Below are positions 16,714-33,488 of a DNA stretch of 64,000 nt, piece after piece. The notes under the pieces are model-generated. The model was not told where the DNA came from and made no database searches. It was given only the letters and a program-made list of their open reading frames with translations. Location of the stretch: positions 1,984,001 through 2,048,000 of the forward strand of contig CAXXVS010000003.1 in assembly GCA_963674755.2 (NCBI GenBank), in the 5' to 3' direction. The translations under genes were made by a program, and so were the position numbers. This DNA comes from Desulfobacterales bacterium. GTDB lineage: Bacteria; Desulfobacterota; Desulfobacteria; Desulfobacterales; UBA5852. The first letter of the stretch is position 1. The number at the start of each line of letters is the position of its first letter.

Positions 16714-18093
16714 ATGAGTACAACGACCGATCTGCGACCCGAACATGCCACCGCCACCCAGAATGCCTGCAACCTGTGCGCCCCTCTCGGGGCGGCCCTG
16801 GCCTTCAAGGGCGTCGCCAACTGCGTGCCGCTGCTGCACGGCTCCCAGGGGTGCTCCACCTATATCCGCCGCTACATGATCAGCCACTTCAAAGAACCCC
16901 TGGACATTGCCTGCTCCAATTTCGGCGAGCAGACGGCGATCTTCGGCGGCGGGGCCAACCTGAAGCTGGCCCTGGACAACATCCGCAAGCAGTACAGCCC
17001 CGATCTGATCGGCATCGCCACCACCTGCCTGTCCGAGACCATCGGCGACGACGTGCCCATGTTCATCAAGTCCTATCAGGCGGACAATCGAGACGAGGCG
17101 TTGCCGGCTCTGGTGCATGTGGCCACCCCCAGCTACCAGGGCACCCACATGCAGGGCTTCCACGGAGCGGTGCGCGCCCTGGTGGCGGCACTAGCCGAAT
17201 CCGGCGCTACCGAAGGGGCTGCGGTCAATCTCTTTCCCGGCATGGTATCGCCGTCCGATCTGCGCCACCTGAAAGATATTCTGGCGGCCTTCGGCTTGGA
17301 AGGCATTCTGGTGCCTGACTACAGCGATACCTTAAACGGCCCTTTATGGAGCGAATATCAGCGCATCCCCGAAGGGGGCACACCCGTCACGGCCCTGCGC
17401 CGTACCGGCCGGGCCGCCGCCAGTATCGAATGCGGTCTTGTCCTGGCCGGCGGTAAGGACACCGCCGGCACCTGGCTGGAGACCCATCGGGATATCCCTC
17501 TGCACCGGCTGGGGCTGCCCATCGGAATCCGCCAGACGGATCGATTTTTGGAAATCCTGTCCACCATCAGCGGCCGTCCGATTCCCGGGAAATACACAGG
17601 CCAGCGGGGGCGTCTGCTGGATGCCATGGTGGATGGCCATAAGCACCTGAACGGTGTGCGGGCCGCCATCTTTGGCGAGGAAGACCTGGTGGCCGGTTTG
17701 GCCGGTTTCTGCAGCGAAATCGGCATCGTTCCGGCGCTCTGCGCCACCGGCGGCGGCAAGGGATGCTTTGCGACGGCGGTGAAGGGCGTAGTGCCCGAGC
17801 GCTACCACGCTGAGATGCAGATCCTGGAAGACGTGGATTTCGTGACGATCGAAAAGACCCTGGAAGCCGCCGGCAACGTAGATCTGCTCATCGGCCACAG
17901 CAAGGGCTACACCATGAGCCGTCGCTTGAAACGTCCCCTGGTGCGGGTGGGCTTCCCGGTGCATGACCGGGTGGACGGCAGCCGGCTGCTGCACCTGGGC
18001 TATCGCGGCGCCCAGCAGCTTTTCGATCGCATTGCTAATACCTTGATTGAAGAGAAGCAGAAGAACAATGCGGTCGGCTATACCTACTATTGA
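16714..18093 (+). CDS. nifN: FeMo-cofactor scaffold NifN
   Basis: NACNLCAPLGA, HGSQGC, TTCLSETIGDD; follows nifE. Confidence 0.93.
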   Translation: MSTTTDLRPEHATATQNACNLCAPLGAALAFKGVANCVPLLHGSQGCSTYIRRYMISHFKEPLDIACSNFGEQTAIFGGGANLKLALDNIRKQYSPDLIGIATTCLSETIGDDVPMFIKSYQADNRDEALPALVHVATPSYQGTHMQGFHGAVRALVAALAESGATEGAAVNLFPGMVSPSDLRHLKDILAAFGLEGILVPDYSDTLNGPLWSEYQRIPEGGTPVTALRRTGRAAASIECGLVLAGGKDTAGTWLETHRDIPLHRLGLPIGIRQTDRFLEILSTISGRPIPGKYTGQRGRLLDAMVDGHKHLNGVRAAIFGEEDLVAGLAGFCSEIGIVPALCATGGGKGCFATAVKGVVPERYHAEMQILEDVDFVTIEKTLEAAGNVDLLIGHSKGYTMSRRLKRPLVRVGFPVHDRVDGSRLLHLGYRGAQQLFDRIANTLIEEKQKNNAVGYTYY

Positions 18094-18121
18094 CGGTTTC
18101 GAAAATTGAGAGGGACGTACC

Positions 18122-19396
18122 ATGAATATCGACAACCATCCCTGCTTCAACCCCGGTGCCTGCAAATCCTTCGGGAGGGTTCACCTGCCGGTGGCGCCGC
18201 GCTGCAATATCCAGTGCAAGTTTTGCAACCGCCAATTCGACTGCGTGAACGAGACGCGGCCCGGTGTGACCAGCGCCGTGCTCTCCCCGGCCCAGGCCAT
18301 GGTCTACCTGGAGGAAGTCTTCGCCCGCAAGGGGAACATCTCCGTGGTGGGGATCGCCGGCCCCGGCGATCCTTTTGCCAATCCCCGCGAGACGCTGGAG
18401 ACCTTGTCCCGGGTGCGGGCCCGCTACCCCGAGGTGATGCTGTGCGTGGCCACCAACGGCCTCAATCTGAGTCCGTATATCGATGAGCTCGCGCGGCGCC
18501 AGGTGAGCCATGTCACCGTCACGGTCAACGCCGTGGATCCGGCCGTCGGCGCCCGGATCTATGCCTGGATGCGACCGGGCAAGCGGGTGGTCCGCGCCGA
18601 GGAGGGGGCCCGCCTCCTGCTCGAACGCCAGTTGGAGGCCATTCAGGGGCTCAAGGCGCATGGCATCATCGTCAAGGTCAACAGCATCATCCTGCCCGGC
18701 ATCAATGAGGACCATATCGAGACCGTGGCCCGGAAGATGGCCGGCCTGGGGGTGGATCTCTTCAATGCCATGCCCTACTACCCCAATGCCGGTTCCGACT
18801 TCGAGCATTTGGAGGAGCCCGGCAAGGATACGGTGGCGGCTATCCGTGAAAAAGCGGCCCGCCATGTCAAACAGATGCGCCATTGCACCCGCTGCCGGGC
18901 CGACGCGGTGGGACTGCTGGGGGAAGCGCCGGACAAGGAGCTCATGAACACCCTGACGGCCTGCCGCCGCTTGGAAGTGACCAAGCCCCGCGCCGGCCGG
19001 GTATCGCCGCGTCCCAACGTGGCCGTGGCCAGCATGGAAGGGGTCCTGGTGAACCAGCATCTGGGAGAGGCGGAAAAACTCATGGTTTACGGCGAGAAGG
19101 AGGGCCGGATCCAGTTGCTGGACGTACGGGCCGCCCCGGCCCGGGGCGGTGGCCAGCAGCGCTGGCAGGCCATGGCCGAAACCCTGGCGGACTGCAGCAC
19201 GCTGCTGGTCAGCGGGGTGGGGGCCAATCCCCGGAAAACCCTGACGGCTTCGGGCATGGAAGTGCTGGAGATCGAAGGACTCATCGAAGAAGCCCTGCGG
19301 GCGGTCTTCGCCGGCGAGAACCTGAACCACATGGCCAAGCGGTCGCTGACAGCCTGTGGTTCGGCTTGTGGCGGCAACGGTATGGGATGTGGTTAG
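18122..19396 (+). CDS. nifB: Radical SAM protein NifB with C-terminal NifX-like domain
   Basis: HPCF, CNIQCKFC, ETRPG, AGPGDP, TNG, CTRCRADA; C-terminal VNQHLGEA. Confidence 0.97.
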   Translation: MNIDNHPCFNPGACKSFGRVHLPVAPRCNIQCKFCNRQFDCVNETRPGVTSAVLSPAQAMVYLEEVFARKGNISVVGIAGPGDPFANPRETLETLSRVRARYPEVMLCVATNGLNLSPYIDELARRQVSHVTVTVNAVDPAVGARIYAWMRPGKRVVRAEEGARLLLERQLEAIQGLKAHGIIVKVNSIILPGINEDHIETVARKMAGLGVDLFNAMPYYPNAGSDFEHLEEPGKDTVAAIREKAARHVKQMRHCTRCRADAVGLLGEAPDKELMNTLTACRRLEVTKPRAGRVSPRPNVAVASMEGVLVNQHLGEAEKLMVYGEKEGRIQLLDVRAAPARGGGQQRWQAMAETLADCSTLLVSGVGANPRKTLTASGMEVLEIEGLIEEALRAVFAGENLNHMAKRSLTACGSACGGNGMGCG

Positions 19397-19541
19397 GTTG
19401 GCCCGTTAGGGCAGGCATCTTTCGCTCCTGGGCGGTGTTCTCGCCGATTGGTGATCCTCGACGTAGCGCGGCTACGCCTGCGGTCACCAATCGGATGCGG
19501 CCTTGCCCAGAAGCAAAATCTACCCGCCCTAACAGGCCAAC
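19397..19541. repeat. Family B long-hairpin repeat, copy 2 (nifB-ferredoxin)
   Basis: IR GTTGGCCCGTTAGGGC / GCCCTAACAGGCCAAC; apical CGTAGC-GCG-GCTACG. Confidence 0.85.
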
Positions 19542-19588
19542 AGTGTTGATTGAAATACAGTTTTTTCAGCTAATGAAAGGAAGAAAAA

Positions 19589-19894
19589 ATGGAAAAACCG
19601 GAACACCATATTTTTGTCTGTGCCAGCTTTCGGGCCGACGGCGATCCCAAGGGGGTTTGCCACAAAAAGGGATCGGCGGCCCTGCTGCCCTATATCGAGA
19701 ACGAAATTCTCGACCGGGGACTGGATGCCCAGATCACCGCCACGGGGTGCATGAAAGCCTGCGACTACGGGCCGGTCATGGTGATCCAGCCCCAGGGGCT
19801 GTGGTACGGCAATGTGGACGGTGAAGAGGCCGTGGACGAGATCCTGGACGCCCTGGAAGACGGGGCCGTGGTGGATGAGCGGCTCATTTCATAG
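19589..19894 (+). CDS. Thioredoxin-like [2Fe-2S] ferredoxin, nif-associated
   Basis: HIFVC...GVC...TGCMKAC.YGP..VIQPQGLWY pattern. Confidence 0.9.
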   Translation: MEKPEHHIFVCASFRADGDPKGVCHKKGSAALLPYIENEILDRGLDAQITATGCMKACDYGPVMVIQPQGLWYGNVDGEEAVDEILDALEDGAVVDERLIS

Positions 19895-21799: not shown

Positions 21800-22648
21800 A
21801 TGAAGAAAATCACGCTGTTTCTGTCCGCCCTGCTGATCGTGATCGCTTCCTGGCAGCCATGCCTGGCCGAGACCGATTTGGAAATCCTCAATCGTGTCGA
21901 GCTGGAGGCGACCCCGCTGGATGTGGCCGTATCCGACGACGGCCTGTGGGTCTACGTGCTGACCGACTCCGCCCGTCTCTACATCTATAGCCTGGAAGGC
22001 AAGCTGCAGGGTTCGGTGGCGGTACCGGAAGGCTCCCGGCACATTGCCGTGAGCCCGGTTCAGGACCTTCTCATGATCACCAATTCAGTTGACCGGACGC
22101 TGCAGGCGGTCCGGATCAATCTGGAGCATACCTTTTCCTTGGAAGACTCCCCCACCTTGGGGCCTGCGGACGCGCCGGTGACCATCGTTGAATTTACCGA
22201 TTTCGAGTGCTCGTATTGCGCCCGTCTGGCACCTGTGCTCGAAGAGGTGCACCAGGCCTTTCCCGAAAAGGTTCGGATCGTATTCAAGAACTATCCCCTC
22301 GTGCGCATTCATCGCTTTGCCGTTCAGGCCGCCCTGGCGGCCCTGGCCGCCCAGGACCAGGGCAAGTTCTGGCCCTTCGAAGAGCGGCTTTTCCAGAATT
22401 ACAACCGACTCAATCCCCAGAAGATCGAGGAAATCCGGAAGGAACTCGGACTGGATGCCAAACGCTTCAACGCCCGCATGAACGATCCGGCCCTCAAGGA
22501 CCTCATCCGCCGGGACATGCAGGACGGCAGTGCCGCCGGCGTCAACGGCACCCCCACCGTTTTTATCAACGGCAAGAAGTACCGGGGACAGCGGTCGTTG
22601 GAGGGGTTCCGGGAGGCGATCGAAGCCATTTTGAAAGGAAAAAGTTAG
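21800..22648 (+). CDS. Exported DsbA/thioredoxin-domain protein with N-terminal beta-rich domain
   Basis: Signal peptide, EFTDFECSYC CxxC, GVNGTPT cis-Pro loop. Confidence 0.9.
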   Translation: MKKITLFLSALLIVIASWQPCLAETDLEILNRVELEATPLDVAVSDDGLWVYVLTDSARLYIYSLEGKLQGSVAVPEGSRHIAVSPVQDLLMITNSVDRTLQAVRINLEHTFSLEDSPTLGPADAPVTIVEFTDFECSYCARLAPVLEEVHQAFPEKVRIVFKNYPLVRIHRFAVQAALAALAAQDQGKFWPFEERLFQNYNRLNPQKIEEIRKELGLDAKRFNARMNDPALKDLIRRDMQDGSAAGVNGTPTVFINGKKYRGQRSLEGFREAIEAILKGKS

Positions 22649-22800
22649 CGGTGGTGCAATGCCGCCGTTGCTGATCGGCATACAACGGCCAGACCCTGAC
22701 TTGGAAAAGCGTGGTGTGTCGGATTTCGAACCTGAGGGGCGGAACCCGGCGCTCAGGAACCCTGTACGGCAGATGGTGTCAAGCATCCAGGCCAACAGGA

Positions 22801-22862
22801 TATGAACGACTCCGCCGCAAAGCAGCGGGGAATTAAACCCTGGTCCACCTTTGGCGGATTAA
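22801..22862 (-). repeat. Short palindromic repeat family C (IS200/IS605-end-like), copy 1
   Basis: Reverse complement TTAATCCGCCAAAGGTGGACCAGGGTTTAATTCCCCGCTGCTTTGCGGC aligns with 27910-27957. Confidence 0.65.
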
Positions 22863-22963
22863 GGGGCAAGGCGGTGCTTGCGAGGGGAGAAGCCGGCCGT
22901 CATTCCCTGAGGGATGCCTGATAGGCGACGGATGGCACTGCCCTGCCAGGTGAAGCGGCCGCT

Positions 22964-23662
22964 TTACTTGAAGGCCAGGATCACTTCCGAGGGGAAGAGC
23001 ATTTGCTGGTGATATTCGCGTTGCACAACGGTAAACCCGTTTCGTTCCAGCCGGTCCCTCAAGCGGACCCCCCGGCAGCCGCCCATCGTCCTGGGTGAAA
23101 TCCGGTAGATCCGGTCATAGAGCCTGCTTCCGAAGCGCTCACCTTCCGTCATATTGACCAATACGAGTTTCCCGCCGCGTTTCAAGACGCGTTTGAATTC
23201 CGCAATGATGCTGTCCATATCCTCATATGGAATGAGGTCGAACATATAGTTGTTGACCAGGGTGTCGATGGTTTCATCCCCGATGGCCAACTGGAAAGCC
23301 GAGCCGATTTCCAGGGAATAGTTGGCCGTCGCAAACCGGCCGGCCCGTTTCCTGGCCCGGGCGAGCATGCCTTTTGATAGATCGACGCCGATCGAGGTGC
23401 CCTTAGGATTTCTTTTGAGGATTTCGCCAAAGGCGATGCCCGTCCCCACGGCCACTTCGAGAACGGATTGCCCATCCTGGATATCGGCCAGGGCGATGGC
23501 CCGATCGCGGGCGCGCGTTTCGGTCAGTCTTCCCCAGACATCATAGAGCGGGGCAATCCTGTTATACACAGCGGCGATGTCTTCCTGGCCGACGCGTGCA
23601 TCCTGATACTGTTTGCTGGTGCCGCAGCACGAAAATCCGCAGCAGGTGAATGGAATCCCCAT
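22964..23662 (-). CDS. Class I SAM-dependent methyltransferase
   Basis: VLEVAVGTG motif I, GVDLS, RVLKRGG; AAGGGGAG RBS before ATG 23662. Confidence 0.9.
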   Translation of the reverse strand: MGIPFTCCGFSCCGTSKQYQDARVGQEDIAAVYNRIAPLYDVWGRLTETRARDRAIALADIQDGQSVLEVAVGTGIAFGEILKRNPKGTSIGVDLSKGMLARARKRAGRFATANYSLEIGSAFQLAIGDETIDTLVNNYMFDLIPYEDMDSIIAEFKRVLKRGGKLVLVNMTEGERFGSRLYDRIYRISPRTMGGCRGVRLRDRLERNGFTVVQREYHQQMLFPSEVILAFK

Positions 23663-23813
23663 GGCTTGCTCCCCTTTCGTAATACGCCTTTGGATGACGC
23701 CTATCGCCTCGCGAAGCAAAGGCGCACTCGCTTAAAATGGCGGCCTCCCGGGGTTGGCCCGGTCCGGCATGGACGGTGCCCTGGCCGATTGGGGTCGCTT
23801 AAGGAAGCCGGCC

Positions 23814-25619
23814 TTACCCGGCCGCGGGCAGATCGATATTGAACCGTGTAAATTCGCCCGGCGAGGTCGCCACATCGATTTCCCCGCCGTGGTCCTTCAC
23901 GATGCTGTAGATGATCCACAGGCCCAGGCCGGTGCCTTTTTCAGCCGGTTTGGTCGTAAAAAAGGGCTCGAATATACGTTCCCGCACATCATCGCTGATC
24001 CCTGCCCCCCGGTCCTCGATGATTGTCCGCACAAATGCCTGCCCGGCCCTGTGGATGGTCCGGGCGGTGATGAGAATCTTCTTGTCATCGTCATAGCCGG
24101 GGTATTCCCTGTTCAGCGCATCCCGCGCATTGGTCAGGAGGTTCATGATAACCTGCTGAATCTGTTGTTTGCGGCACAGGATGCGGGGCAGGCCGTCGGG
24201 GATATCCACTTGGATGGCAATCTGATCGTGGCGCATGATGGTCTGAACCAGCGAGAGCATCGAGGCCACGATGTCGTTTATCGTTTCAGTCGTTTTGTCC
24301 GGCGAATCTTCCTTGCGTGCAAAGCCGAGGAGATTCTGTACGATGGTGCGGATGCGTTCCGTCGCAGACTTTATCTCCGAAGCATACGCGATGATCTCTT
24401 CGCCTTCGAAGGCCTCCTCGGCGATCAGCTCGGCGTAGCCGGAGATGCCTGAAATCGGGTTGTTGATTTCATGCGCCACACTGCTGGCGAGCGTACCGAT
24501 CGCTTCGAGCTTCTGGGACTGGCGCAATTGGGCCTCCATCGCCAGCCTTTCACTGATATCGCGGGCGGTACCCTGGATACCGATGGCGCGGTTTTGGCTG
24601 TCGAAGAGGATCTTGCTGAGGATCTCGACGGGCAAAGGCGACCCATCTTTGCGCAAAACCTCGGTTTCGATGGGCGTTCCGGTGTCCCGGATCCCTTGCG
24701 CAATGCCCCGCTCGATGATGTGCAAGAGTTTCGCATACACATCCCTATGGCAATGTTCCTGAAGGGAGGTGCCGATAAACGCTTCGGGCGCGTACCCCAG
24801 CATCGGCACGACGGCCGGATTGACGTAGGTGAATTCGTAATCCATGTTCATCGTCCAGATCATGTCCAGGGTGTTGTCCGCCAACAGACGATAATGCTCT
24901 TCGCTTATCCTGAGCGCTCGCTCTGCTTGCACTTGTCTGGTCATATCGCGCACGATGCTCACCACGCCGCTTTGCCGTCCGGCCGCACCATCCAACGCGA
25001 TGACCGTGTTTTCGGTCTCGATGAGGACGCCGTCTTTGCGTTTCATCCGATAGCGGGTGCGGTAGGCCATGTTTTTTTGGAGCGCCGCTTCGCTGGAACA
25101 GCCAATCGCTTCAAATGAGGCACGATCCACGTGCAGGATCTCGGTACGCCTGCCTGTCAGTTCGGAAGGGGTGTAACCGAACATGGGGGTCACGGCAGAA
25201 TTGCACCTTTGGATGGTACGCGTGGGGAGATCGACAATAAAGACCGCTTCACCCAGGTTGGCCAGGACCGTATCGAACATGTTCTGGGAATGCGCCAGCT
25301 GACTCTGCAGAATGTCACGCTCCGCCCCGCGAAAGGCACGCAGCGCCAGCCAATACACGAGGGCGGTTGTCAGGACGACATAGAGCACGCCCTTGAACGT
25401 CTGCGCCACAAAAGTGGCACTGCGCTCCGCGATCAGCCAGTCCACGGCCTTGTCCGAGAGCAAAATCCAGGCAATGCCGGCCGCGGCATAGATGGCGGCG
25501 ATGCGGATGGCCCGGGCATTTAGAGACGGCCCTTTGGTTGATGATGGAATGTCTTGCGGGGATGCCTTCTGCGTCACGGCTGGTGTCCTTTGTTTTCTCC
25601 GTAAGCTGTCGTAAATCAA
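23814..25619 (-). CDS. Membrane PAS-PAS sensor histidine kinase (no adjacent response regulator)
   Basis: Two TM helices, two PAS/PAC, AHEINNP H-box, NARDA, DRGAG, PFFTTK..GTGLGL; start uncertain. Confidence 0.93.
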   Translation of the reverse strand: MIYDSLRRKQRTPAVTQKASPQDIPSSTKGPSLNARAIRIAAIYAAAGIAWILLSDKAVDWLIAERSATFVAQTFKGVLYVVLTTALVYWLALRAFRGAERDILQSQLAHSQNMFDTVLANLGEAVFIVDLPTRTIQRCNSAVTPMFGYTPSELTGRRTEILHVDRASFEAIGCSSEAALQKNMAYRTRYRMKRKDGVLIETENTVIALDGAAGRQSGVVSIVRDMTRQVQAERALRISEEHYRLLADNTLDMIWTMNMDYEFTYVNPAVVPMLGYAPEAFIGTSLQEHCHRDVYAKLLHIIERGIAQGIRDTGTPIETEVLRKDGSPLPVEILSKILFDSQNRAIGIQGTARDISERLAMEAQLRQSQKLEAIGTLASSVAHEINNPISGISGYAELIAEEAFEGEEIIAYASEIKSATERIRTIVQNLLGFARKEDSPDKTTETINDIVASMLSLVQTIMRHDQIAIQVDIPDGLPRILCRKQQIQQVIMNLLTNARDALNREYPGYDDDKKILITARTIHRAGQAFVRTIIEDRGAGISDDVRERIFEPFFTTKPAEKGTGLGLWIIYSIVKDHGGEIDVATSPGEFTRFNIDLPAAG

Positions 25620-25905
25620 TACCGTATGCGGGAGAGACGGCCCTTGTCTGTCCCGGCCTGTCGGTTATCTCCGACGGTTTACCCCCCACTTCCGGAAGCT
25701 ATCGCCTCCCGCCGGTTTTAAAAACGAATGGCCACCCGGCAGCCAGGACAGCCTATTGTCATCGAATTCAGATCGGTTTTGTACAGGGGTGTGACTCGAA
25801 TAGGGAAAGTTAAAGATATAATCGTCGTTTGTCCAATGGAGGGGGTTGAATCCATTTACACCAGCCGTTTTATCCGGCAGCTGTGTCGTCTTGCCCGACT
25901 CGTCG

Positions 25906-25934
25906 TTGTTCATCCCCACGCCTGTGGGGAACAC
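25906..25934 (-). CRISPR. Single type I-E CRISPR repeat (no spacers)
   Basis: Minus strand GTGTTCCCCACAGGCGTGGGGATGAACAA versus I-E consensus GTGTTCCCC..GGGGAT(A/G)AACCG; last 2 nt degenerate. Confidence 0.85.
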
Positions 25935-26034
25935 TCTTCCTGGAATTCCCTGAAATCCGGAAGGCTTTTTCGTTGAAAATTTTCTACCGGATATTTTGAC
26001 TTTCCGGGATACAGCTTTCAAATTGTCAAAGAGC
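25935..26034 (-). promoter_or_regulatory. Type I-E CRISPR leader
   Basis: AT-rich; minus strand GCTCTTTGACAA...CCGGTAGAAAATTTT...AAGA abutting the repeat, like enterobacterial I-E leaders; lies between the cas2 remnant and the repeat. Confidence 0.75.
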
Positions 26035-26109
26035 TTCATCATTTTCGGTTATTTCGGGTTCAGGCGGTAAAAAAGATACGAGTCGGAGACCGTCACAGTC
26101 AATCGGGAT
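26026..26109 (-). pseudogene. cas2: 3' remnant of type I-E cas2
   Basis: Own translation IPIDCDGLRLVSFLPPEPEITENDEAL*, matching the E. coli Cas2 C-terminus PVDLDGLRLVSFLP; the upstream frame loses similarity and hits a stop. Confidence 0.88.
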
Positions 26110-26231
26110 TGTCTGAGCACCACAAAGATCCCTTTGACCGCATGCTTGTTTGTCAGGCGCTCGCCCATGGCCTTGTATTACTCACCCCGGATGAGATGAT
26201 CCGACAATACCCTGTACGAACCATCTGGTAA
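26109..26231 (+). pseudogene. vapC: 3' remnant of a PIN-domain (VapC) toxin
   Basis: Own translation LSEHHKDPFDRMLVCQALAHGLVLLTPDEMIRQYPVRTIW*, with the HxDPFDRxLxxQA PIN motif; N-terminal part absent. Confidence 0.85.
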
Positions 26232-26602
26232 GCGCATCCTGCCAGCCCTCAATTCAGTAACTCCGGGACGAAGCCTCAGGAGTTGATCCAGCGAAATTCA
26301 TAGTTGCCGGACATGATAGCCGACGGCACTGGAAGATCTTGCAGGAGATTTCGGATCTCTGCGCCAATGTGGCGGCCCTAAGGAATGGGAGCGTTGCGCC
26401 GTATTGCGCTCAAGCGGGAGAAAAACAGCCGTAACAGGACTGATTGTCATTGTACCGGGCGGCGGCCGTCCGATATCCGCGTTTAGGCGGGAGCGCGCGA
26501 GTCTATTGTGGATGACCATGCCGCCCTGAAATGGATCTGAACAATGTGCTGGCTTAAAATAAGTCGCGCTAATCGGTGTGCCGCACCAGGCGGCATCGCC
26601 CC

Positions 26603-26770
26603 TCACGTGCCGTGACAGCAACAGGCCGCATCGTCGACCTGGTCCACATCAAGAACGAAAACCGGATCGGCGGTAAAGACCTGCTCGCAGAATTCACAAA
26701 GGGTGCGCGTGCCTTCGATTTCATCGGGCACTTCGAAAAAGCGGTCGCAATAAGGGCATACCGTTTCCAT
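26603..26770 (-). CDS. 55-aa zinc-ribbon microprotein (absent from the ORF track)
   Basis: GGAGG RBS; METVCPYCDRFFEVPDEIEGTRTLCEFCEQVFTADPVFVLDVDQVDDAACCCHGT*, two CxxC pairs. Confidence 0.75.
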   Translation of the reverse strand: METVCPYCDRFFEVPDEIEGTRTLCEFCEQVFTADPVFVLDVDQVDDAACCCHGT

Positions 26771-27174
26771 GGAGACCTCCAGAAGATGATACCACTACAA
26801 GTTGTTCGGCCGCACAGGCAGCGCTGTGTCACATCTGTTGGTTAAATTGTGCCGGCTTGAAAGAGGGTAACGACAACAGCACTGGCCTGGCGTCCGGTGG
26901 GCGGAATGATAGCGTAACCGGGGGACGACGAGGCCGGCTCTGCGTTTCTATCGCATTGTGCGTTGTCTATGCGCCCGGCGGTCGGTCACGGTTGCCGGCT
27001 TTTGGCTAAGAGGGGGGCCTTGGGGGGGGAATGACAATGCCGTGTCCGATGCCTGTCCGTGACATGACCTATGGCAGATTTGTCGAGCGAATGCAAGGGG
27101 GTGACAGGTTTCCCACAGTCGCTATCGCTATGCTATGTTCGACATGATGTCTTCCGTGCTGCCGCACTTCCTGT

Positions 27175-27317
27175 CAGGCCTTGGATAAATGGCGTCTAAG
27201 GCCGAAATGCAGCGTTGCCGCCCTCGCCAAACGGTACGACAACCCTAACGGTTGATGCGCTTTTCGCATCGGCCGGCGCGTTGCCTTGCGGCCTGATTCT
27301 TGTTTATCCCAGGCCTG
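27175..27317. repeat. Family B long-hairpin repeat, divergent copy 3
   Basis: IR CAGGCCTTGGATAAA / TTTATCCCAGGCCTG, 143 nt, keeps AAATGG..GCGTT..CCTTG landmarks. Confidence 0.55.
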
Positions 27318-27435
27318 CCGGCATCCCGGGGATGGGCCGACCCCGGCAGAACTTGGATTGACAGACCGGAGGTAATTTATTAAGTGATTTCAGCATAAAA
27401 AACAGCCATTCCGATAACGCGACAGAGCCGAGGGC

Positions 27436-27825
27436 ATGATGGATACGACAGAAAAATTACGCACAACGGCCGTCGCCCTGTTTCCGGAAGGGACAGGGGA
27501 GGAAGATTGCCGTGAGATCATGGACCGGCTGGGCACGGATAGGGACCTGGCCGGCTTCCGGACCCTTCTCAGGAGCACGATCCTATCGGACGGCAGCCGG
27601 AGGACCTTTATCAAGTTTACCAAAGTGGTCCCGCTCAACGACCTTGGCACCGGATGGGTGATCAACATCACCGCTAAACTGTTCGACGCCGGCTACGAGG
27701 ATGTGGCCTGGCGGCTCACCCGGCTCAAATCGCCCGCCGAGGACGGGGATGACACGACCGAATCGTTTCCGGCGGAGCTTTTCAAAAAGGCTTTGGCGGA
27801 TGACGACGAGGATCCGGGGGAGTAG
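27436..27825 (+). CDS. Hypothetical protein with acidic C-terminus
   Basis: GAGGG RBS, host-like codon usage, no recognised motif. Confidence 0.65.
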   Translation: MMDTTEKLRTTAVALFPEGTGEEDCREIMDRLGTDRDLAGFRTLLRSTILSDGSRRTFIKFTKVVPLNDLGTGWVINITAKLFDAGYEDVAWRLTRLKSPAEDGDDTTESFPAELFKKALADDDEDPGE

Positions 27826-27909
27826 CACCGGATCCTATCACTCTGGTACGAGCATCGTTACAGGTTATTCCCCGTTCGCCCCGTCCCGGAGCCTATGGCC
27901 TGCCATTGT

Positions 27910-27957
27910 TTCATGCGCCAAAGGCGGGCAGAGATTTGATTCCCCGCCCCTTGCGGC
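27910..27957 (+). repeat. Short palindromic repeat family C, copy 2
   Basis: TTCATGCGCCAAAGGCGGGCAGAGATTTGATTCCCCGCCCCTTGCGGC. Confidence 0.6.
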
Positions 27958-28158
27958 ATTTCATGGTCGCTATCGATACCCCGCTGTTGTGCGGCGGGGC
28001 CGTTCATTATCCGCTCATCCCTGTCACACCCGGTTGCGTCGGCACGGCCCATGCGATCCGATGAACCTTTGCCGCTGCTGCCGGTACCAAACCCTATAAT
28101 GGCTCAACGATCGAACGCGATCCCTATCCACCCCGCTCATTGAATAAGGAGAGCAGTC

Positions 28159-29781
28159 ATGCGGTTTCCGACAACGGTTCTGGTGCTGGCCCTGAGTCTT
28201 TCCCTTTGTTCCGGCATGCTTATGCGCGTAAATGCCGGTGAACCGGCGTCTGTCAGCAGAAGTGACAGCCTGCCGCCGGTCAAGGCGACCCAAGCGACGT
28301 CCCCTGCTATATCAGTCCCGGCGGCGATGGGGTTTTGCTGCGCCAACGGAAAGGTGACGGCCTCCAAGGCGGCGGATTGCGCCGCCCGGAACGGCCGTTT
28401 TTTCACTTCGGCCGTCGCCGCGCAGCAAGCCTGTCAGAAATACGGACAGCCCATGCCGGTGCATCCCACAGGAAAGGTGAACCCCTTGACGAAAAAGCCC
28501 GTTGGCAGCACGCCCAAACCCGTTCCCGGGAAAATCCAACCGATGGCACCCGGCTTGCCGGGAGGTGTCACATCTCAGCCCCCGGCGGCCAACGGTCCTG
28601 ATTTGCGGACCACCGGTTGGCAGTGGTCGGCCTCCCCCAGGGTAGGCGCCCCCATCGGTACGGGGGCTATCCTGACGTTCACGATCACCAACCAGGGAAC
28701 CCAGTCGGCGCCGGCCAACCGGATTGCCATCGGCGTTGAATCGGCACCGGACGGCGCACCGGCCGCCGAGCTTGCGGCCGTATTTGAATGCCCCCCACTG
28801 GCACCGGGGAAGTCCATGTCTTTCGCATGGCCGTCGGCGTCCGGGGACACATGGCAAAAGGGGATCTATCGCTTTTCGTTTGCGATCGACAAAGACAATG
28901 CGATCGCCGAATCGAACGAACTAAACAATCAACGCATCTTTACGGTCGAGCCGAAAGCACTGGCCGTGGTGAACCCGGCGATTCAGGTGCAGGGTGGTGT
29001 ATCCCAGGTGGGCCTTCCCGACCTGGCGATCGTGTCGGCGCCGGACTGGCCGCAAAAAATCGTGCTGGCGGACCTCGGGGAGAAGGTGACCTTTCGGGCC
29101 AAGGTGACCAACACCGGCATAGTGGCCTCTTCGCCCACCACGGTGCGGCTCTCCCGGGTCAATCCCCAGAACAACGCTACCGCTTCGATGGGACAGGTGC
29201 CCCTGCCGTCGCTCGCCGTCGGCGCGAGCGTGGTCGTTCAGATCGAGGGGGCGCTGCCCCCGACCAAAAGAGCAGTGGGGACGCACCACCTGCGCATGGT
29301 GATCGATCCGATGATGGATCTGTTGGAGGTGACGCGGGACAACAATTTTACCGATGTTATCCCGGTGGAGTACATTCTCAAGTCGGACCTGACCCTGTTC
29401 AAGCCGGGCGAGGCCCGGGTTTTCCCGGATCGTATGGTAGCCGTGGATAAACCGGTCAAGATGGTGTTCACGGTGTATAACATGACCCGCGAAAGTTCTT
29501 CGGGGCCGATTACCCTGACCCTGACCTGTCAGGGGCAGCCGGCCGGCGTCGAGAGCTACACTGCGCTCGGGGGCGGCCACGACGGCAGCACCGACGGCTG
29601 CGACGGCCAGGGCCATGGCTGCCATGTCTTCAGCTTCACCCGGACCTGGTCGACTCCCGGGGTAAGACAATGCGAAGTCAGCGTGCGGCACCAGGGAGGT
29701 GCGGAGTACGAAGTCGACCCCGCCAACAATCATGCCGATTTCCGTGTGAATGTGCATCCGGACTGGGCGTCGCCCAATTAG
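28159..29781 (+). CDS. Secreted CARDB-repeat surface protein
   Basis: Signal peptide, PDL...N.G...ESNELNN and EVTRDNN, EVDPANN Ig-like repeats; AGGAG RBS. Confidence 0.8.
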   Translation: MRFPTTVLVLALSLSLCSGMLMRVNAGEPASVSRSDSLPPVKATQATSPAISVPAAMGFCCANGKVTASKAADCAARNGRFFTSAVAAQQACQKYGQPMPVHPTGKVNPLTKKPVGSTPKPVPGKIQPMAPGLPGGVTSQPPAANGPDLRTTGWQWSASPRVGAPIGTGAILTFTITNQGTQSAPANRIAIGVESAPDGAPAAELAAVFECPPLAPGKSMSFAWPSASGDTWQKGIYRFSFAIDKDNAIAESNELNNQRIFTVEPKALAVVNPAIQVQGGVSQVGLPDLAIVSAPDWPQKIVLADLGEKVTFRAKVTNTGIVASSPTTVRLSRVNPQNNATASMGQVPLPSLAVGASVVVQIEGALPPTKRAVGTHHLRMVIDPMMDLLEVTRDNNFTDVIPVEYILKSDLTLFKPGEARVFPDRMVAVDKPVKMVFTVYNMTRESSSGPITLTLTCQGQPAGVESYTALGGGHDGSTDGCDGQGHGCHVFSFTRTWSTPGVRQCEVSVRHQGGAEYEVDPANNHADFRVNVHPDWASPN

Positions 29782-29814
29782 ACGGCGCCCGCTGGCAAAG
29801 GACGGCCTGCGGCC

Positions 29815-31383
29815 TCACATGGCCGGATATCCGGTAATGTCCCGGATATGGTTGTAGATAGGCTTCAGCCGACGGTAGAGCTTGCAGTAGACCCTTTCGA
29901 AAAGCGCCCGGTAGAGATCCCGGTTGGCGGGGATGGGCTCGAAGACGTCCGCCACCCGGGTCATGGCCTCTACGGCGCTGTCGAAATCAGAGTGCAGCTT
30001 GAGGCCCACGGCCGCATCGATGGCCGCCCCCAGGGCCGAGGTTTCATAGGTGTGGGGCCGCTCCACGGGCAGGTCGAAGATATCCGCCGTGATCTGCAGG
30101 GCGGCGTCGCTCTGGGCGCCGCCGCCGGAGACCCGGAGCGACGTGATGGGGACCTTGTTGCGTTTCTGCAGCACTAGCATGCCCTCCTTGAGGCCGTAGC
30201 CCAGGCCTTCCAAAATCGCCCGATAGATATGGGCCCGGGTGTGCACGTCGCCGAAGCCGATGATGGCGCCCTTGGCATCCGCATCGGTGTTGATACCCGG
30301 CGACCAGTAGGGCTGCAGGGTCAAGCCCATGGAACCGGGGGGAACGTCCCGGATGAGCTCGTCGAAAAGGGCTTCCGGCGCGATCCCGCGCTCCCGGGCG
30401 ATCTGCTGCTCCCGCAGGCCGAACTCCTTTTTGAACCAGCTCACCATCCAGAACCCGCGATAGACCATGACCTCGGTGTTGTAGGTCCCCGGCAGGGCGC
30501 CGGGGTAGGGCGGCACGAAGGGTTTGATCTCCACGTACTTCGGGTTGGCCGTGTTCACGGTGGCCGTGGTGCCGTAGCTCAGGCAGGCGGTTTCCGGTGA
30601 TCGGCAGCCAACCCCCAGCACTTCGCAGGCCTTGTCCGTGGCCGCGGCGATCACCGGCAGGCCTTCGGGGATACCGGTCTCTTGGGACGCCTGGCGGGTG
30701 ATGTGGCCCAGGAGGCCGCCCGGCGGCACCAGCTCCGGCAGGAGCGAGGGGGCCATGGGAAAGAACTTCCACTTGAGATCCCGCGGTCCGGCCCAGCAAT
30801 GGCGTTTGTAGTCGAAGGGCACATAGCCCACCTGGCTGCCCACGGAATCGCGGTATTCACCGGTCAGACGATAGATCCAGAAGCCCGACAGGAAAAGAAA
30901 CTTGTGGGTTTTTTTCCAGATCTCGGGCTGGTTCTGGCGCAGCCAGTTGGCCTCGCACTCCCGGATAGCCTTCTCCACGACGCCATGCTGACCGAGGGCT
31001 TTCAGGGCTCCGGAGACGAGCGGGGAGAAATTGCGCTCCATCGCCGCCTTGCGCTGGTCGAGCCAGAGAATGGCCGGCCGCAGGGGGGCGCCGTTTTTAT
31101 CCAGATTGACCATGGTGTTGCGCTGGGAGGTGACGGCCACCCCGGCGATGCGGGCGGAATTGACCCCTGCGGTACTGAACAGCTCGCGGGAGGTGGCGGT
31201 GAAATGCTGCCAGTAGAAGTCCGGCTCCTGCTCGGCCCATCCGGGCCGGCGGGAGAAATAGGGCTCGAAGGGTGTTTTGACCATGTGCTGGATCACCCCC
31301 CGGGGATCGATCAGGGCCGCCCGGATGGACTGGGTGCCGGCATCGAACACCAGGATCAGCTCGTCTTGTGCAGCGGCGCTCAT
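29815..31383 (-). CDS. FGGY-family carbohydrate kinase
   Basis: FDAGTQSIRA, ILWLDQR, SYGTT, RAILEG, VSGGGAQS, SALGAA. Confidence 0.93.
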   Translation of the reverse strand: MSAAAQDELILVFDAGTQSIRAALIDPRGVIQHMVKTPFEPYFSRRPGWAEQEPDFYWQHFTATSRELFSTAGVNSARIAGVAVTSQRNTMVNLDKNGAPLRPAILWLDQRKAAMERNFSPLVSGALKALGQHGVVEKAIRECEANWLRQNQPEIWKKTHKFLFLSGFWIYRLTGEYRDSVGSQVGYVPFDYKRHCWAGPRDLKWKFFPMAPSLLPELVPPGGLLGHITRQASQETGIPEGLPVIAAATDKACEVLGVGCRSPETACLSYGTTATVNTANPKYVEIKPFVPPYPGALPGTYNTEVMVYRGFWMVSWFKKEFGLREQQIARERGIAPEALFDELIRDVPPGSMGLTLQPYWSPGINTDADAKGAIIGFGDVHTRAHIYRAILEGLGYGLKEGMLVLQKRNKVPITSLRVSGGGAQSDAALQITADIFDLPVERPHTYETSALGAAIDAAVGLKLHSDFDSAVEAMTRVADVFEPIPANRDLYRALFERVYCKLYRRLKPIYNHIRDITGYPAM

Positions 31384-33127: not shown

Positions 33128-33488
33128 CCTCCAACTCTGGTGGAGGACCCGGAGCGATTCTACCGATCCGGTGTGATGAGTTTATAGGGATTCTTCATTT
33201 TCTTCCACGTGGAAGAAAATGAAGCAATCACGCCACGGCGTGACAAGCTTCAGACGCCCGTGTCCCGCGTACCCTGCGCGTCGTCAAATCGGTCGATGAC
33301 GCGGCGCCTCGCTACGCCCGGCGCCTTGCCTGGCAGCACAATGCCTTGCGGCATCGACCGATTGAAGCGGCCTGAGCGCGCGGAAACGCGCTTCGCTCAA
33401 ACCCGCCTGCGGCAAGCCTTCGGCGGACAAGCAGTCCGCGCGCTTTATTCCGCCCCCATCGCCGATGCTCGGCGCGGGGCAAAGGGAA
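33128..33488 (+). repeat. Family A repeat, copy 2 (longest)
   Basis: 5' module CCTCC..CTCTGGTGGAGG..GATTCTACCGA shared with 48039; core shared with 5331. Confidence 0.9.

Follow-up and report, generated by a model that had tools for sequence, protein, structure and literature searches.

The locus described here, which lies in a window of 64,000 nucleotides from a Desulfobacterales genome (the whole stretch of DNA that was analysed), is probably an inactive deletion scar. Sequence comparison suggests that about 10 kb, consisting of the 5' part of vapC, vapB, a DEDDh exonuclease gene and the genes from cas3 to cas2, was lost by illegitimate recombination at a few shared bases, the toxin-antitoxin (TA) pair being a likely passenger in this loss. 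The site descends from a type I-E CRISPR-Cas system and a VapBC pair, it is a working member of neither, and the scar represents ordinary erosion of a defence locus. The features of the site, with the evidence by which they were placed, are as follows:

23814..25619, minus strand: PAS-PAS histidine kinase, left flank (family scan)
25906..25934, minus strand: single type I-E-like CRISPR repeat with a 27-nt core at 25908-25934 (pattern search, fold)
25935..26025, minus strand: CRISPR leader of 91 nt, from the cas2 stop to the repeat (alignment to intact I-E loci)
26026..26109, minus strand: cas2e 3' remnant, 27 codons and TGA (tblastn, Cas2e HMM, alignment)
26107..26109, no strand: junction, where GAT is readable from either parent (loose end of run X5 at 26107, codons of 28 relatives)
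26107..26231, plus strand: 3' remnant of vapC (PIN toxin), codons 89-128 and TAA (PF01850, alignment to genome G004)
26290..26385, minus strand: 5' end of a WYL-domain regulator gene, eroded here and intact in genome G005 (comparison with G004 and G005)
26379..26385, no strand: second scar, left by a 69-bp deletion between two copies of TAAGGAA (comparison with G004 and with runs X4 and X5)
26603..26770, minus strand: small CxxC...CxxC zinc-ribbon-like gene of 55 aa, right flank (motif alone)

The initial annotation had recognised a Cas2 C-terminus on the minus strand and a PIN toxin C-terminus on the plus strand, and both identifications were borne out; as it had also remarked, neither piece appears in the list of open reading frames (at least 60 aa). 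The minus strand of 26029-26109 translates to IPIDCDGLRLVSFLPPEPEITENDEAL, with TGA at 26026-26028, and the consensus for this remnant is IPIDYDGLRLVSFLP with Y>C. When the intact Cas2e of genome G031 (a query scoring 121.5 bits with TIGR01873) was used in tblastn, the remnant was the sole match in the genome (62% over 26 aa, E 3e-4). A Cas2e HMM made from 28 distinct relatives (30 extracted), with the window excluded and the loci picked by their repeat and leader likeness, was run over the 168,237 six-frame fragments of the genome and likewise gave a single match at E<=5, which was the remnant (E 9.7e-5). Thus both searches single out 26026-26109, and the Cas2e-type sequence (PF09707/TIGR01873) expected of a type I-E origin is recognised by tblastn and by the HMM of the relatives. 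The piece scanned alone (26-29 aa) had no match in Pfam or NCBIfam, and PF09707 gave nothing at E<=1 across the genome, so that no Cas2e is found by PF09707. We take this miss to come from the small overlap of about 10 model positions, the models ending near residue 87.

On the plus strand, 26109-26231 translates to LSEHHKDPFDRMLVCQALAHGLVLLTPDEMIRQYPVRTIW followed by a stop. This piece matches positions 85-118 of PF01850 below the cut-off (E 0.0012, 19.9 bits against 23.6), and 37 of its 40 residues (92.5%) are those found at 89-128 in the VapC of G004, a sister species of the same genus with about 90% identical DNA and an unbroken vapC. Eight of the 41 codons differ from those of G004, three of them altering the residue. 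Since the tail carries no stop or frameshift, the remnant is probably young. A PIN toxin downstream of a Phd/YefM-like antitoxin, the arrangement that marks a VapBC origin, is provided by the remnant together with its G004 orthologue; in the window itself no working VapBC pair is present, 88 of the 128 vapC codons being missing. The tail is without an ATG start and without the N-terminal acidic residues which we take to belong to the PIN active site. The G004 VapB had no match by tblastn in the genome of the window, and no PIN domain was found there at E<=0.01.

The DNA 3' of the cas2 remnant aligns base for base into the repeat of the intact I-E loci L066 and L071, and leader and cas2 tail together show 67-70% identity to intact I-E loci over about 175 nt. 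The leader and the single repeat were absent from the initial annotation. The core of the repeat is identical to the G004 repeat, it forms a 7-bp hairpin (-13.6 kcal/mol, z -3.0), and within the 6.7-Mb genome the repeat is unique at up to 6 mismatches. Its last 2 nt differ from an internal repeat and resemble a terminal repeat, and no spacer is left. The order expected of a type I-E origin, cas2 followed by a leader and a 29-nt hairpin repeat, is thus present. Of a working type I-E system, cas3, cas8e, cas11, cas7, cas5, cas6e, cas1 and a whole cas2 were looked for in the genome and none was found, and an array with at least one spacer is replaced in the window by one repeat only. In the same genome (6.7 Mb, 97% complete) no Cas1 was found, 14 Cas proteins of types I-E and I-C gave no tblastn match at E<=1e-3, and our own script found no array of 3 or more repeats.

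The vapC-derived letters begin at 26107 and the cas2-derived letters stop between 26108 and 26110, which agrees with the common truncation point (~26107-26110) originally assigned to both pieces. In run X5, vapC continues unbroken upstream of 26107 as it does in G004. Where the remnant has the cas2 codon at 26107-26109 (ATC, Ile), 15 of the 28 relatives encode Ile, 12 Val and 1 Met, and these codons suggest that 1-4 nt, most likely 2-3, were shared at the junction, a reconstructed value, the intact cas2 parent being unseen.

The join could have been made artificially from two loci or two strains during assembly, an explanation we consider hardly credible. The read evidence consists of Logan contigs from metagenome-like runs, which are not linked to each other, and run X1 may be the source data of the assembly. 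Nevertheless, a 9.6-kb contig of X1 spans 24500-27500 without a single difference, over 3 kb, and a 244-nt contig of X3, which comes from another study, spans 25928-26171 with 0 differences, bridging the join by about 180 and 62 nt. Adjacent X3 contigs diverge from the window (21 of 1434 and 7 of 522 nt, about 1.4%). Both halves are moreover expected at this site from the synteny of G004. As far as the contigs show, the join is no misassembly. A fourth run, X6, was without cover at the join, and X5 was without cover over vapB and the exonuclease gene; among the X4 pieces listed the join did not occur, which, like the gap in X5, tells neither way. Another, unlinked contig of X5 carries the 69-bp scar of the window.

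The X3 contigs hold 33 extra letters, a spacer-sized insert, and a second repeat at the repeat of the window. From the junction contig, the differences in the flanks and this insert, a second strain likely has the join together with at least one spacer. No exact match to 27 of the 33 letters was found in viral_contigs, nor any match at up to 3 mismatches in the genome of the window. The two spacers of G004 likewise had no match longer than 17 nt in that genome. These searches give no sign of self-targeting as the cause of the loss, with nearly all spacers unseen.

Forty relatives were searched, 11 of which match part of 25500-26900, and the alignment to sister genomes at the flanks, proposed at the outset, identified the orthologous sites in G004 and G005. 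In G004 the zinc-ribbon-like gene is followed by a WYL remnant, vapC (128 aa), vapB (87 aa) and the DEDDh exonuclease gene on the opposite strand, and then by a Cas3 HD stub, a half repeat, a spacer, a repeat, a spacer, a degenerate repeat, fic and the truncated kinase gene. The vapB and vapC frames are unbroken; VapC reaches 36.6 bits with PF01850, and VapB is Phd/YefM-like (PF02604, E 5e-5, below the cut-off). In the Cas3 stub, residues 1-23 are joined to about 98-198 of the 882-aa Cas3 P0001 and fused into the half repeat, so that cas3 alone shows at least two deletions. In G004 a different deletion removed the stretch from cas3 to the array; most of the WYL gene went too, and vapB and vapC were kept. 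The exonuclease gene, Cas3 HD stub and half repeat (L016:12633-13582, G004:C30), with two spacers and vapBC unbroken, form an independent scar in their own right.

In G005 an intact WYL gene (WYL/WCX by Pfam) is followed by vapB without vapC, the exonuclease gene, a 37-codon stub of the same Cas3 as in G004 (P0001), a type I-C operon (cas5-8-7-3-4-1-2) and an array of about 45 repeats, with fic farther on. This order points to an apparent in-place swap of the CRISPR subtype from I-E to I-C. The cas8 and cas5 of this operon (L102:1609-14800, G005:C14) are divergent and score far under the I-C cut-offs.

Other members of the genus show further forms of the pair. In G001 (L104:5658-6209) an internal deletion joins vapB to codon 54 of vapC, behind which the vapC 3' end is repeated in tandem; this fusion lies some 12 kb away from the right flank that the genomes share. 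In G010 (L021:7871-8356) a repeat with 4 mismatches stands 120 nt from the zinc-ribbon-like gene, with a weak, eroded vapC-like piece on its far side, an order not derivable from a G004-type ancestor by one deletion. G002 has a vapC tail only, and G008 has an unbroken vapBC in another setting, its orthologous contig stopping 1 kb into the site. Altogether, 7 genomes of the genus show a piece of the pair; in 5 of them (G000, G001, G002, G005, G010) vapC is either broken or absent, and in G004 and G008 it is unbroken.

At the right flank of the site, the WYL remnant by itself gives a weak match (37% over 38 aa, E 1.9); in G004, the orthologous DNA matches residues 1-59 of the G005 WYL protein (E 3e-6). 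The 69-bp deletion took the start of the WYL remnant, and its joint, where 7 letters fit both sides, was also observed in runs X4 and X5. The 55-aa zinc-ribbon-like gene, which is shorter than the ORF length cut-off, is kept in G004, G005 and G010. At the left flank, the G004 kinase gene is 5'-truncated and separated from the array by fic. Related fic genes, whole or in pieces, were also seen within or next to CRISPR repeats or cas genes in L011 (G039), L075, L093, L016 and L102.

An intact I-E version of the site was sought in several ways. A degenerate Cas2-tail pattern gave 0 matches in metagenome_contigs. A repeat-leader pattern search returned 17 loci, the best leader/cas2 matches being 67-76%, and none of these had a blastn match to the flanks of the window or to the vapBC-exonuclease stretch of G004, apart from matches to the repeat and to a short part of the cas3 start. 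Cas2e was found in none of the 16 other genomes of the family, by a search that recovered only 1 of its 14 controls. The Cas3 stub matched 6 of the 401 genomes of the order, none of which gave an intact I-E version. Since neither a genome nor a contig with the exact intact I-E locus was found, the content, the size and the microhomology of the deletion are reconstructed values. A literature search made by subject, not by organism, found no paper on this locus.

Cas2e tail, leader and repeat joined to the vapC tail, together with the agreeing gene order of G004 and G005, uphold the original interpretation of the site as a type I-E deletion scar. In G004 and G005 vapB, accompanied by vapC in G004, stands just upstream of the start of the exonuclease-cas3 stretch, and so the lost DNA likely contained the 5' part of vapC, vapB, the exonuclease gene and the genes from cas3 to the 5' part of cas2. 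The exonuclease gene goes beyond the list of lost genes given in the initial annotation. The ancestor would have carried the WYL gene, then vapC and vapB on the opposite strand, then the exonuclease gene and cas3-cas8e-cas11-cas7-cas5-cas6e-cas1-cas2 in the direction of the WYL gene, followed by leader, array and fic. A deletion from codon 88 of vapC to about codon 78 of cas2 would remove 9.6-10.7 kb; three intact loci measure 8313, 9210 and 9428 nt from the cas3 start to cas2 codon 78, to which 1249 nt were added from G004. Such a deletion may have occurred by slippage or end joining at the 1-4 shared nucleotides. Recombination at short homology is suggested by the bases shared at the join and by the neighbouring 69-bp deletion between 7-nt repeats. 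The array was probably reduced to one repeat by recombination between repeats, likely as a separate event that postdates the divergence from the X3 strain. The loss of the locus may be due to drift, or to immunity having been too costly to keep.

The deletion had originally been described as one event that took cas3 through cas1, 5' cas2, the antitoxin and 5' vapC. This content is likely, and it was the single event that the other data called into question. The TA pair, or part of the cas operon, may have been broken first and a later deletion have made the join, a course of events to which we give somewhat less than an even chance. Runs X4, X7 and X9, from three studies, contain an allele that joins the middle of vapC to the region upstream of the exonuclease gene, which is kept; it skips 511 nt (L016:12025-12537) with vapB and 5' vapC, that is, the deletion of vapB and 5' vapC has already taken place. 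The two or more deletions within the G004 cas3, and the separate 69-bp deletion and collapsed array of the window, point in the same direction. However, the X4/X7/X9 allele stands on unlinked contigs and could come from a different species, the absence of a stop or frameshift from the vapC tail speaks against a long decay, and one deletion is the most economical reading. If the origin did take several steps, the scar would be uninformative on joint loss. The 8.8-kb contig of X4, which starts in vapC, departs from the G004 sequence just ahead of the cas3 start.

The remnants of the scar are likely without function: the searches of the genome yielded no Cas6 or Cascade that could process the repeat, and the VapC tail lacks both the ATG and the N-terminal acidic residues. 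It is very unlikely that the lone repeat and leader were retained as a working element, either as an orphan array served by Cas proteins in trans or as a regulatory RNA. The 244 nt at the join are identical in two strains with flanks about 1.4% apart, where 3-4 differences would be expected (chance ~0.03), the repeat still folds, and the leader contains a weak sigma-70-like site (9/12). But the divergence between these strains is patchy, and among the differences listed there is none in 24702-25197 either. The promoter-like sites number 2 against 0.8 +/- 1.0 in shuffled sequences, that is, they are at chance level, and the genome, in which no Cas1, Cas2, Cas6 or Cascade was found, offers this spacerless array no partner that we could detect. 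A scan of 22000-30000 with Rfam gave 0 matches at E<=1.

The initial annotation had further suggested that losing the toxin in the same event is what permits the loss of a TA-stabilised cas locus. This suggestion found no support: G004 lost its cas operon with vapB and vapC unbroken, and in G005 vapC is missing and a full I-C system is present. What a type II pair punishes is its own loss, the toxin outlasting the antitoxin; the loss of its neighbours carries no penalty. Since the toxin outlasts the antitoxin, a joint deletion of vapBC is what addiction should oppose, and release through toxin loss would require a toxin under Cas control such as CreTA or CrePA.

The idea that vapBC made the cas locus addictive, so that its loss was viable only if vapC was destroyed, by a CreTA/CrePA-like dependence on Cas or on the WYL regulator, appears improbable to us. 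The pair was placed inside the locus, between the WYL gene and cas3, and the 5 of 7 genus genomes with a broken or missing vapC would fit, as would the existence of Cas-repressed toxins (PMC12737573). General erosion of TA pairs would account for these 5 genomes equally well. Against addiction, G004 is without the cas3-to-array stretch and most of the WYL gene, yet its vapB and vapC frames are unbroken, which makes this genome a natural control against release from the toxin. Its antitoxin is a Phd/YefM-like protein, not a crRNA-like RNA (PF02604, as above). No extra repeat-like sequence (up to 8 mismatches) was found near the G004 vapBC, and the longest matches of the two G004 spacers to the vapBC-exonuclease interval are 9 and 7 nt, shuffled spacers giving mostly 7-9. 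Thus, of the properties that mark CreTA and CrePA, a crRNA-like antitoxin partly complementary to the toxin promoter did not emerge from the G004 repeat and spacer searches, made with the intact array unseen, and loss of the toxin gene once Cascade is gone is contradicted by G004, which apparently keeps both frames at a site devoid of Cascade. The VapC family has a Cas-query match in 1 of 42 genome loci, namely the one holding the DNA of G004, and none in the other 41, many of these loci being short. Among intact I-E loci, a WYL gene stands upstream of cas3 in three (L071, L114, L115), directly or with genes between, and a vapBC of the G004 type had no match in any of the three.

A related and likewise improbable proposal, that vapBC was wired to the CRISPR locus through repression by WYL or Cascade, and that the loss of I-E selected for the loss of vapC, would make the pair a protein type II counterpart of CreTA/CrePA. 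If this wiring were true, escape would have happened repeatedly, in the window, in G005, in G001 and in G010, with G004 as a silent or recent exception, and the I-C system of G005 would have taken over the WYL-exonuclease head of the lost I-E operon. The scar would gain in import only if vapBC turned out to be under the control of Cascade or the WYL regulator.

The preferred interpretation, an eroded defence locus with the TA pair as a likely passenger, is in line with what is known of comparable systems. Deletion of CRISPR-Cas happens frequently and may come at little cost (PMC3784566), and 12% of CRISPR arrays are orphans (PMC7145637). The site resembles the orphan or degraded loci of these two reports in that a large deletion has taken the cas genes and left repeat and leader in place, and in that no cognate cas cluster was found in the genome. 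It differs from them in having one repeat, in both breakpoints lying inside genes and being readable to a few bases, and in the relatives revealing other fates of the same site. With the intact I-E loci L071, L114 and L115 it shares the Cas2e C-terminus, the cas2-leader-repeat order and the 7-bp hairpin repeat. The intact I-E relatives have a 61-nt repeat period; unlike a working type I-E system, the site has only 27 cas2 codons, a leader and one repeat.

As for VapBC (PF02604 and PF01850), the tail shares 92.5% of its residues with a VapC whose gene is unbroken and lies behind that of a Phd-like antitoxin; unlike a typical VapBC, the pair sat between the WYL regulator and cas3 and was lost with the cas operon. 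For Photorhabdus, PMC13617665 reports that TA presence barely affects the conservation of neighbours, that chromosomal TA pairs often erode, and that 41 of the 50 validated TA systems have pseudogenes; broken vapBC copies are similarly common across the genus studied here. The likeness to CreTA/CrePA (PMC12737573) is the toxin gene inside a CRISPR-Cas locus; the differences are the protein antitoxin, the lack of any crRNA-like RNA in our searches and the toxin gene that the sister G004 retains without Cascade. The process is an ordinary one that can be followed here with unusual ease: one site in one genus exhibits several fates of I-E, which was lost with the TA pair in the window, lost with the pair kept in G004, and replaced by I-C in G005. 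The natural control offered by G004 agrees with the view in the literature that type II TA pairs on chromosomes fail to anchor their neighbours. CRISPR loss can leave a one-repeat scar invisible to ORF and array finders; reduced to one repeat, the locus of the window would be missed by array finders.

Some further elements were noticed in the window. Positions 16714-19894 of the plus strand contain ORFs which we take to resemble nifN, nifB and a ferredoxin gene. Two short dispersed elements, of about 140 nt at 27175-27318 and about 100 nt at 27908-28008, each have several copies of 73-88% in their own genome and in G004, the former being present in G008, G013 and G015 as well; we would guess that they are MITE- or REP-like. 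A perfect, loopless 32-nt palindrome with two 16-nt arms at 33193-33224 is matched in G004 and G010.
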